Positions 22,449 through 56,056 are shown, counted from the whole stretch's first letter. The stretch is DNA of 59,139 nucleotides, filler included, from Basidiobolus meristosporus CBS 931.73 (GCA_002104905.1; 4 parts of 4 records of this genome joined end to end with filler, not necessarily neighbours in it), one strand, 5' to 3'. Numbers and translations are program-made. Notes: generated by a model from the letters alone, not told the origin.

Positions 22449-22520
22449 TTCCCCATCGGGGAATCGAACCCCGGCCGTCTCGGTGAAAGCGAGAAATCCT
22501 AACCACTGGACCAATGAGGA
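22449..22520 (-). tRNA. tRNA-Glu-TTC: tRNA-Glu(TTC)
   Basis: Cloverleaf TCCTCAT...ATGGGGA, anticodon arm ctcgc-ttTTCac pattern, GGTTCGATTCC. Confidence 0.95.
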
Positions 22521-22843
22521 ATACATGAAAACTGTTATGATTTAAATCCTAACTAGTCACTACCGATCACTTGAACACTACTGATCGAACACCTGGAATT
22601 CCACACAGACGATCAATCGCACTCAGTGATACACACGTTATTTAATACATCTTGAACCCTCCTTTTGGAAGCTTGCCCTACGTTATCGGAAGCTCTCCCT
22701 CCGAGGCTATCTCTATATAAACTCCTTTGAACACTATCAATAAAGCATCAACCTTTTACCGGTTCATCAACTATTCAGATAACCTCTCTGATTCGTATTG
22801 GACATCCTCCGGTCCTCCTCCGCTTGCCCTCGATTCATAACAT

Positions 22844-22855
22844 TGGTAGCAGCGA
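22844..22855 (+). other. Primer-binding site complementary to the 3' end of tRNA-iMet
   Basis: TGGTAGCAGCGA is the reverse complement of TCGCTGCTA+CCA of the iMet gene at 28015-28086. Confidence 0.9.
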
Positions 22856-23334
22856 ATAAATCAACCAGAGGTAATCGAGAGAGCTGACCGCCACCACGAC
22901 TACAACATCATTTCGAGACAAACTGAATCACGGTCGGTGATTCTCTGAACCTCCCTCAATGGAGGCAAATAACAAATCTTCCGTCGTTGAGTACTAACCA
23001 ACGACCTTCTGGGATCCTGTGACTAGGAGAACTTCTTTCAAACCGCCTTACTTAGGGGTTTTCCATCATTAGCAATGACTGCTAGATTCCTGGGACGAAC
23101 ATGTGCACACCATGTGCAGCTTCATAAACTTCTGGGGAAAGACATACCTCTCGCAGGTACTCTTCTTCAGGGACGCCAACAATATGGCTTTCTCGATGTT
23201 GCGCAAACAACACCACTCACTACGCAGTGAGGTTCAGACTGGTCTAGAGGGAGTTCGCAAACTGCCTAAGACGTATTCTTGAACAACCTAGCACCGTAGG
23301 TTGATCGTGATCAAGGAGCAAGACATCCTTCGTC

Positions 23335-53700: not shown

Positions 53701-55147
53701 CATTGATTTCAAAGTTGGCTTGGGGTATGATAATTGGGGAAATGGTGTCTTGGAAGTCCCTGATTTGTAAAGTCAAGGGTTCAGTCCTGCTGTTCACTAT
53801 AATTGATTCCTTGGTGGCACAGAGGATGTGAATTGGGGGGCAAGGGATTGTTTGTAGCTTCATCTGATCAGCTACATCTTTTGAAATGTAGACATCAGTT
53901 GCTCCACTGTCAATGAGTACAGAGACACATTGGTTGTTGTTGAGAATCCCTGGGAGTTTCAGCATCTTTGGGGTAGTATATAAGCTCTGAGTCCTCTGAT
54001 ACTCCTTAACAAGGCTGATTGTGTGCTCCTCCTCCTTAGTGGAGAGTTGGAATACTCTTTGTAATGGCCTCTTTGGGCATTCATTGACTTTATGACCCTG
54101 TTCCTTGCAGTAAAAGCATAGTCCAAGCTTGAAGCATTCCTCTTTAGAAGGTCTTGGTGTGCTCTGCATAACATCTAGGTCCATAGGCTCCAGTGTGTGG
54201 GGGTAGTGTGCACCTTGTTCAGTGATTGGTTGACTACCAATAGGTATGTGGTTATTGGCTTTGAGGCCTGTAGTAGTTCTTGAGTGACCAATTCTGTGGT
54301 TGACAGCCCTTCTGAAGTGTATGGCATCATATCTTTCTGCCAGTTCCATAGCCTCTACTAGGGTTTTGGGGTCTTTGTATTCAATTTCCCATCTAGTGTT
54401 GGATTTCAGGCCTCTTAGGTATTGCTCAAGTAGTTCAGTATCAGGCATGTTTTGAATTTCCATACTAAGCAAGTTAAACTGCTCATTGTACTCTTGAACA
54501 GACTTGGCTTGAAAGAGTTTGGACAGTTTTTCTCTTGCCATTCTATCAGCATTGATAGGTGTAAACCTCTTTCTCAATGCTTTAACAAAGTCAGCCCAGG
54601 AGGCTATGGGTGGAAAGATGCCCCTATTCATTCCTTGAATGTGAAGTTTCCACCACATGGTTGCTTCCTTTCTGAAAAGTGAACAGGCATAATGTACTTT
54701 GACTTCTTCAGAGTCATCTGAGAAGTATAGGTACTGCTCTACTTCAAATATCCAAGTCTCTAGAGTGGCAGTGTGTCTTTTGCCTTCAAAGATGTTGGGT
54801 TTCTGAAGTTTCAGATTTGTTGCTCTATATTGTTTTGTGAAGTCCAGAGAGCCTTGCCCATCTTCTCCAAGATTCAAGGAATTGGGAGGCACCGCAGGTC
54901 TTACAGATGAGGCTTCACCCTCTCTCTGTATACCTTGACCAGTAAACCATGATCTCTGGGTGTTCACAAAATGTAAAGAGTCCAAGTCTGTCTGCCTACC
55001 CATTCTTGGGTCCAGACTAGGGAGGGCCGCAGGCTCAGTTGTGTGGGACTGTCCTTGACCGGCTAACTCAGCAACTTGTTGTTCAAGACTCTCAATATAG
55101 GCCAACATTTCTTCTGAAGAGCTAAATTTTGGCTTTTCTTCACTCAT
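50798..55147 (-). CDS. Gag-Pol polyprotein (Gag, CCHC, protease, RT, RNase H, integrase; no chromodomain)
   Basis: [54 protein letters not shown]...[27 protein letters not shown]. Confidence 0.97.
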
Positions 55148-55330
55148 TTTGTTTTTGGGTATTGTTTGATTTGCGGTAGGCGGGTGTGTTTACCAAGGGG
55201 GCTGGTTCTCTGGCAGAATTGACTGGGTACTGTTTTTTTTCTTTTTTTGAGTGAAACGGAGGGTTTCTCTGGGAGGTTGGGAGGGTCTCGGGCAGGTACG
55301 GAGGGTATCTCTGGACAATTGGAAGAATAT

Positions 55331-55496
55331 CTGGGAGATCGGAAGAGTTTCTGGGAGATCGGAAGAGTTTCTGGGAGATCGGAAGAGTTTCTGAGAGATT
55401 GGAAAAGTTTCTGGGAGATCGGAAGAGTTTCTGAGAGATTGGAAAAGTTTCTGGGAGATCGGAAGAGTTTCTGAGAGATTGGAAAAGTTTCTGGGA
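55331..55496 (-). repeat. 20 bp tandem array in the 5' UTR of copy 2
   Basis: Eight units in the order A A A B A B A B (A=ctgggagatcggaagagttt, B=ctgagagattggaaaagttt) plus a partial unit. Confidence 0.92.
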
Positions 55497-56056
55497 GGTA
55501 CGGAGGTTTTTGTTTTTTGGAGATCGGAGGTTCGCTGCTACCAATGTTATGAATCGAGGGCAAGCGGAGGAGGACCGGAGGATGTCCAATACGAATCAGA
55601 GAGGTTATCTGAATAGTTGATGAACCGGTAAAAGGTTGATGCTTTATTGATAGTGTTCAAAGGAGTTTATATAGAGATAGCCTCGGAGGGAGAGCTTCCG
55701 ATAACGTAGGGCAAGCTTCCAAAAGGAGGGTTCAAGATGTATTAAATAACGTGTGTATCACTGAGTGCGATTGATCGTCTGTGTGGAATTCCAGGTGTTC
55801 GATCAGTAGTGTTCAAGTGATCGGTAGTGACTAGTTAGGATTTAAATCATAACAGTATGGCAAGAAGTGTCAATAGTTCTCAGACAAGTTCTGTCAATCA
55901 CGACTTCTATTCCACAAGACTTTACTCCATTCAGAATGCTCACTGTATCATGTACCCATCTTCACATTGAACCTACCAATGCAGATGGGTAGCTAGTCGC
56001 AAGGTATGATCAGTGAACATAACATGAAGTCAGGTAATGGGTCAAATACTGAATTC

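Follow-up and report, generated by a model that had tools for sequence, protein, structure and literature searches.

Ty3 inserts at the start region of tRNA genes in both orientations, according to the available text of PMC5911963. In the account of Ty3 integrase that is available (10.1101/2021.07.27.453949), the C-terminal domain (CTD) touches TBP and a vestigial chromodomain touches Brf1; a long linker helix holds the CTD and the chromodomain outward, and linker and CTD together form the platform for TFIIIB. DGLT-A of dictyostelids inserts 13-33 bp upstream from the mature tRNA in either orientation, by a mechanism that the sources, as far as available, give as unknown (PMC5006619, PMC5911963). 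The accessible part of Table 1 of PMC5911963 also places the Ty3/gypsy elements Tj1 of Schizosaccharomyces japonicus, beta/Tca8 of Candida albicans and Tyl3/Tyl6 of Yarrowia upstream of tRNA genes, and its entries for precise tRNA-gene targeting come only from ascomycete yeasts and dictyostelids (social amoebae). Ty1 binds polymerase III, and its insertions spread over about 1 kb (PMC5911963, available text). The word 'tRNA' is absent from the accessible text of PMC3248453, and no report of tRNA-gene targeting in early-diverging fungi was found in the accessible portions of the literature searched, which included PMC7175516 and few subscription papers and had supplements and repeat databases outside its scope.

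Here we describe a young Ty3/gypsy family from Basidiobolus that lies 10-12 bp before four tRNA genes, and we consider it quite likely that it reaches them through a tether between its integrase and the TFIIIB/TFIIIC initiation complex. The element resembles Ty3 in inserting at tRNA starts in both orientations, in its domain order and in a long CCD-CTD linker helix, which is predicted here. Ty3 makes a 5-bp target site duplication (TSD) and uses a frameshift between gag and pol, whereas this family has a 4-bp TSD, a single gag-pol frame and a host in Zoopagomycota. Its integrase is only 24-25% identical to that of Ty3 and has no vestigial chromodomain. With DGLT-A, as described in the parts of the cited sources that are available, it shares a single ORF, the lack of a chromodomain, insertion upstream of tRNA genes and a short integrase extension, although 64 residues run from the GPF motif to the end of the integrase here and the extension of D. 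discoideum DGLT-A has 32. The insertion window is nearer and narrower than that of DGLT-A (10-12 bp at four sites), and the Basidiobolus family includes an intact copy. Tj1, beta/Tca8 and Tyl3/Tyl6 are fungal like this element but all belong to Ascomycota. The nearest clade, from Calcarisporiella, Entomortierella, Absidia, Ascosphaera and rotifers, also lacks a chromodomain, and the one relative in which both junctions can be read has no tRNA beside it. A case in Zoopagomycota would extend precise tRNA-gene targeting to an early fungal branch, and targeting here would occur without the chromodomain that Ty3 uses as a ruler.

Two copies of a Ty3/gypsy element

The window, by which we mean the whole stretch of 59,139 nucleotides that was analysed, consists of four contigs joined together, with N-separators at 22242-22341 and 36786-36885. 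A protein encoded on contig 2 and unrelated to the element is 72% identical to one of Basidiobolus ranarum, with further matches only at 33-42%, which marks the host as a species of Basidiobolus. Copy 1 (22533-27679, plus strand) and copy 2 (50477-55854, minus strand) lie on separate contigs. Each is bounded by LTRs of 310 bp that begin with TG and end with CA, located at 22533..22842 (5′) and 27370..27679 (3′) on the plus strand in copy 1 and at 55545..55854 (5′) and 50477..50786 (3′) on the minus strand in copy 2. The preliminary description of this DNA had noticed no differences among the four LTRs, and they are indeed identical over all 310 bp. The primer binding sites (22844..22855, plus strand, in copy 1 and 55532..55543, minus strand, in copy 2) are complementary to the 12 nt at the 3′ end of tRNA-Met, CCA included, and a gene for this tRNA, likely both the initiator and the primer, is present at 28015..28086 (minus strand).

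Copy 2 carries an intact gag-pol in a single frame (50798..55189, minus strand; 1463 codons from stop to stop, first ATG at codon 15) that encodes capsid, CCHC knuckle, protease, RT, RNase H and integrase, and its 5′ leader contains 20-bp tandem repeats (55290..55517, minus strand). The gag-pol of copy 1 (23311..27358, plus strand) is truncated at its N-terminus and split into two ORFs of 685 and 673 aa by a 1-bp frameshift in an A-run near 25335; over 4.3 kb the copies are 99.9% identical. The hallmarks of Metaviridae are present, with TG...CA LTRs, a primer binding site and the order Gag, PR, RT, RNase H, IN with a GPY/F motif, and a TSD at copy 1 only. Copy 1 is followed by AAAC at 27680..27683, which repeats the four bases before its 5′ LTR. 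Copy 2 lacks a matching 4-bp TSD (GAGT on the left, GTAT on the right) and may therefore be a recombinant or a mis-join; its empty site was not seen in a second comparison with contigs from public runs. From the identical LTRs and the intact copy we infer that the family was active until very recently, if it is not active still.

Junctions with tRNA genes

Copy 1 faces tRNA-Glu(TTC), encoded at 22449..22520 on the minus strand with its 5′ end at 22520, across a 12-bp spacer (22521..22532) whose last 4 bp (22529-22532) are the left copy of the TSD. Copy 2 faces tRNA-Lys(CTT), encoded at 50394..50466 on the minus strand with its 5′ end at 50466, across a 10-bp spacer (50467..50476). The LTR nearest the gene is the 5′ LTR in copy 1 and the 3′ LTR in copy 2. 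The preliminary description had put the copies 12 bp and 10 bp from these 5′ ends, with a clean AAAC TSD at copy 1, and had placed them on different contigs in opposite orientations relative to their tRNAs; the gene ends, the second AAAC, the N-separators and the facing of the LTRs all agree with it. Both junctions scored 20/20 against tRNA 5′ ends, and none of 500 random host stretches scored above 0.75.

Further junctions came from contigs of four public runs (X1-X4; two samples, one study), which were compared with both junction regions. An X3 contig passes from tRNA-Glu through a single copy of the TSD and on into the flank to the right of copy 1; it represents the empty site and fixes the TSD of copy 1 at 4 bp. 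Two of five X1 contigs join an LTR end to flanking DNA, and both run into a tRNA. One consists of the last 22 LTR bases, 12 further bases and a tRNA-Glu with 6 differences from the gene beside copy 1 (a Glu variant at 47749 also has 6), and the other of an LTR end, 10 bases and the start of tRNA-Pro (19/22 letters, against 15/22 for the next best gene). X1 may be an RNA library, as its depth pattern suggests, though it is not on record as one. Counting both sources, the readable tRNA-side junctions fall 10-12 bp from the gene in four cases out of four, at four different tRNA genes and in both orientations. We conclude that the family very probably targets the starts of tRNA genes.

Flanks of 5′ LTRs in X4 gave a different picture: by eye, the three among the rows listed have no tRNA start at 10-12 bp. 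These rows come from 7 contigs, present a blended consensus and in some cases adjoin LTR copies of 85-90% identity. A targeted insertion meets the tRNA at just one of its two ends, so that half of all flanks are expected to lack one, and as evidence against targeting these rows are weak, but not nothing. LTR depth was about 13,000 versus 120-134 for single loci, which roughly suggests that the four junctions are drawn from a family on the order of 100 LTRs, although summed depth is no copy number.

Dense tRNA arrays make up contigs 3 and 4, with 51 genes identified by ARAGORN, so that any estimate of chance must use the density of the arrays, 50 Pol III genes in 17.3 kb or about one per 350 bp. 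Within the arrays, the probability that a random site lies 10-12 bp from a 5′ end is p=0.009, and for a distance of 8-14 bp it is p=0.020. The corresponding chance is 8e-5 to 4e-4 for two sites out of two and 6e-9 to 2e-7 for four out of four, figures to be read with the distance windows having been picked after the data were seen and the locus itself having been flagged for its tRNA spacing. The comparison of distances with random expectation, which the preliminary description had proposed for all genomic copies, yields for these four junctions 10-12 bp and a chance of at most 2e-7 at array density.

Two other explanations of the junctions were considered and rejected. One, that the tRNAs arrived together with the element, fails because the genes are four different ones, because they turn their 5′ ends toward the LTR, and because there is an empty site. 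The other, a DNA motif common to the target sites, fails because the spacers differ.

A host-derived segment in copy 1

In copy 1 about 0.5 kb of host-derived DNA (22857..23351, plus strand) stands in place of the leader and the start of gag. At its ends lie two microhomologies, one of 12 nt (22845-22856) and one of 9 nt (23352-23360, in gag), the first of which includes the primer site, and the segment opens with a sequence that mimics the tRNA-Met primer site. Long host contigs in X2, of 53 kb and 11 kb, contain an exact match to the interval 22845-23360. Such a chimera could have arisen by one template switch onto host RNA followed by a normal second-strand transfer at the primer-site mimic. 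Depth in X1 is 4239 for the host segment versus 239 for the element, and the segment folds better than shuffled sequences on the plus strand (z -2.4) and not on the minus strand. Rfam gave no credible match to it (two snoRNA hits at E 2.3). The segment may derive from an abundant unknown RNA that was packaged along with the element. In X2 and X4 its depth corresponds to two copies in the host and leaves nothing for a third, so that copy 1 is perhaps scarce in, or missing from, the DNA sample concerned, and none of the contigs listed spans the junctions of the segment.

Other LTR families in the window

A decayed paralogue of the tRNA-Lys gene lies at 43213..43285 (minus strand), within a block (42830-43300) that copies the Ala-Cys-Lys tRNA region at 49977-50481. 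C>T and G>A account for most of the changes in this block, the pattern that methylation-driven decay would be expected to leave, and the tRNA-Cys of the block has a 34-bp deletion. Ten base pairs from the decayed tRNA-Lys begins an LTR of a family unrelated to the element, here called family B (43296..43624, plus strand), with a tRNA-Ile-type primer site behind it. Its first base corresponds to the base at which copy 2 begins. Most simply, a second, unrelated LTR family uses the same tRNA-Lys site; recombination at the first five LTR bases, which the two families have in common, could also have put it there.

Remnants of family B span 43296-44500 and about 37950-38860, and no tRNA adjoins the latter copy, near 38000. 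Two solo LTRs of a family C (37217-37547 and 41183-41531, on contig 4) each have their own 5-bp TSD, and neither has a tRNA start next to it. A decayed sister of the element at 38946-40076 (overall span 38858-40076, minus strand) retains an integrase remnant with 34% integrase identity whose best match is the element's protein. Its 3′ end is similar to that of the element, its LTR is possibly about 70 bp long, and it appears to be nested in another retroelement, in the gag of family B. No tRNA start adjoins the sister remnant.

Integrase structure and relatives

The integrase of copy 2 (50801..52102, minus strand) comprises an HHCC domain, the catalytic core, a predicted linker helix of 41 residues, a GPF/SH3 domain and a C-terminal tail of low confidence. 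Its alignment to Ty3 integrase stops at residue 406 of 434, which leaves 28 residues versus 103 in Ty3, and gag-pol has no match to the chromodomain profile PF00385. With only 28 residues after the SH3 domain, a Ty3-type, Brf1-binding chromodomain is absent. The predicted structure (mean pLDDT 77, pTM 0.42) places a helix at residues 304-344, a counterpart of the extended helical CCD-CTD linker of Ty3, and beta strands at 354-405, with no strands thereafter and a pLDDT below 50 from residue 412. Among solved structures Ty3 was the best match by sequence (E 1e-25 for integrase, E 1e-96 for RT), and a fold search with the integrase returned foamy-virus and Ty3 integrases at 20-25% identity. A W-containing motif in the tail is common to the relatives of the element, the rotifer-type group included.

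The nearest integrases (37-53% identity) come from Calcarisporiella, Parasitella, Entomortierella, Absidia, Ascosphaera, bdelloid rotifers and metagenomes, and the Calcarisporiella RT is 61% identical to that of the element. No Basidiobolus-named homologue occurred among the integrase search matches, and a scan of viral contigs turned up no relative. Trees were built with FastTree from 74 of 118 sequences, which did not include Ty3, Tj1, Tf1 or DGLT-A, and were midpoint-rooted. The element and its nearest relatives form one clade (support 0.88-0.96 for RT and 0.88 for integrase), and all seven chromodomain-bearing proteins fall outside it in the RT and integrase trees alike. The element is a Ty3/gypsy element without a chromodomain, neither a chromovirus nor Ty3 proper.

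ARAGORN found no tRNA in 39 loci of relatives, and Rfam gave no match in the 14 of these that were searched with it. Most of the relatives' contigs end inside the LTR; those that inform are L003, on both of its sides, L001 and L008, each on a single side, and L004, for 19 letters. At L003, a rotifer-type relative with 45% integrase identity, both junctions can be read, and they show a 4-bp TSD and the primer-site type of the element; neither flank (96 bp and 2.6 kb) has a tRNA or Rfam match. With this one locus as the ground, targeting is probably not a property of the whole chromodomain-less clade, and a close relative that lies apart from tRNA genes provides a natural comparison. Two minor features were also seen among the relatives: L001 carries two identical tandem LTRs, 5 bp apart, at its 3′ end (4673-4981), and the integrase relatives L037-L039 sit in bacterial metagenome bins, probably as eukaryotic contamination.

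How tRNA genes might be reached, and alternatives

A fixed distance, unrelated spacers and both orientations point to a protein ruler on the promoter rather than a DNA motif. By analogy with Ty3, the integrase is likely to be tethered to the Pol III initiation complex: it would dock on TFIIIB, loaded by TFIIIC, at the tRNA promoter. The tether would be the SH3 domain on its long linker helix, the counterpart of Ty3's TBP contact, and the short tail or another surface would take the place of the Brf1-binding chromodomain. As the aiming module of Ty3 is absent, the element likely finds tRNA starts by a route of its own. The preliminary description had read the locus as a Pol III-gene-targeted retrotransposon in an early-diverging fungus; the targeting (four of four junctions) and the host (Basidiobolus) are supported, and a part for TFIIIB is an analogy only. 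Because copy 2 is intact, the way in which Pol III starts are found by elements that lack a chromodomain, DGLT-A for example, becomes testable with a short integrase. A broader proposition is tentative, and we lean slightly against it: that a chromodomain-less lineage distant from Ty3 evolved base-precise Pol III aiming in Zoopagomycota through an undescribed integrase surface, and that two or more unrelated LTR families in this genome have converged upon a single nucleotide within a tRNA promoter.

Targeting could also be real and need no tether to TFIIIB, if the intasome docks on TFIIIC or on polymerase III itself, or if it favors start sites for their bent DNA, free of nucleosomes. The missing Brf1-binding chromodomain speaks for this, as does the W motif of the tail, which recurs in relatives of which one, of rotifer type, is not beside a tRNA, so that no special aiming module is visible. 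Set against it is the 3-bp window in both orientations, which matches Ty3, Tj1 and DGLT-A, whereas insertions of Ty1, which binds polymerase III, are scattered over about 1 kb (PMC5911963, as far as available), and we regard this explanation as unlikely. It is less likely still that only part of the family is targeted, or that a loose bias toward tRNA arrays, in which insertions that spare the tRNAs survive, has left four sites as a selected sample. That reading draws on the X4 flank rows among those listed and the sister remnant, which have no tRNA start, on arrays as dense as about one Pol III gene per 350 bp, and on X1, which, if an RNA library, could favor contigs linked to tRNAs. Survival in spacers, however, would scatter sites over hundreds of bases and not 3, the probability of the four sites is at most 2e-7 even inside arrays, and flanks without a tRNA are expected at half of the junctions of targeted insertions.

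The junctions might instead be assembly artefacts that join collapsed repeats, tRNA arrays and LTRs alike. Contig 3 does contain long perfect inverted duplications, copy 2 has no TSD, and the host segment of copy 1 has the depth of two copies in X2 and X4 with its junctions unspanned among the contigs listed. The TSD of copy 1 is nevertheless exact and matched by the X3 empty site, a separate run supplies two more junctions with equal spacing, and every join falls exactly at an LTR terminus, which makes artefact a very improbable source of the pattern. Insertion at tRNA starts through an integrase tether is the reading that we prefer.

Surrounding DNA

Dense mixed tRNA arrays occupy 27684-36785, 45600-50476 and 55855-59139 and include one 5S gene (46501-46619). 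In X3, a run of low depth, the tRNA-Glu flank is as deep as the element, which suggests that the arrays are multi-copy. Long near-perfect inverted duplications at 28860-36785 (2.7 kb, and a 4.7-kb palindrome) are either real rearrangements of the array or assembly chimeras. Elsewhere in the window we observed tandem repeats with units of 124-132 bp at 8596-9304 and host genes for an XPG/FEN1-family nuclease (19459-21057, minus strand) and a CAP-domain protein (5494-6048, plus strand). Finally, genes for tRNA-Ser and tRNA-Ile at 56812-56972 lie head to tail only 5 bp apart and possibly yield one dimeric transcript.
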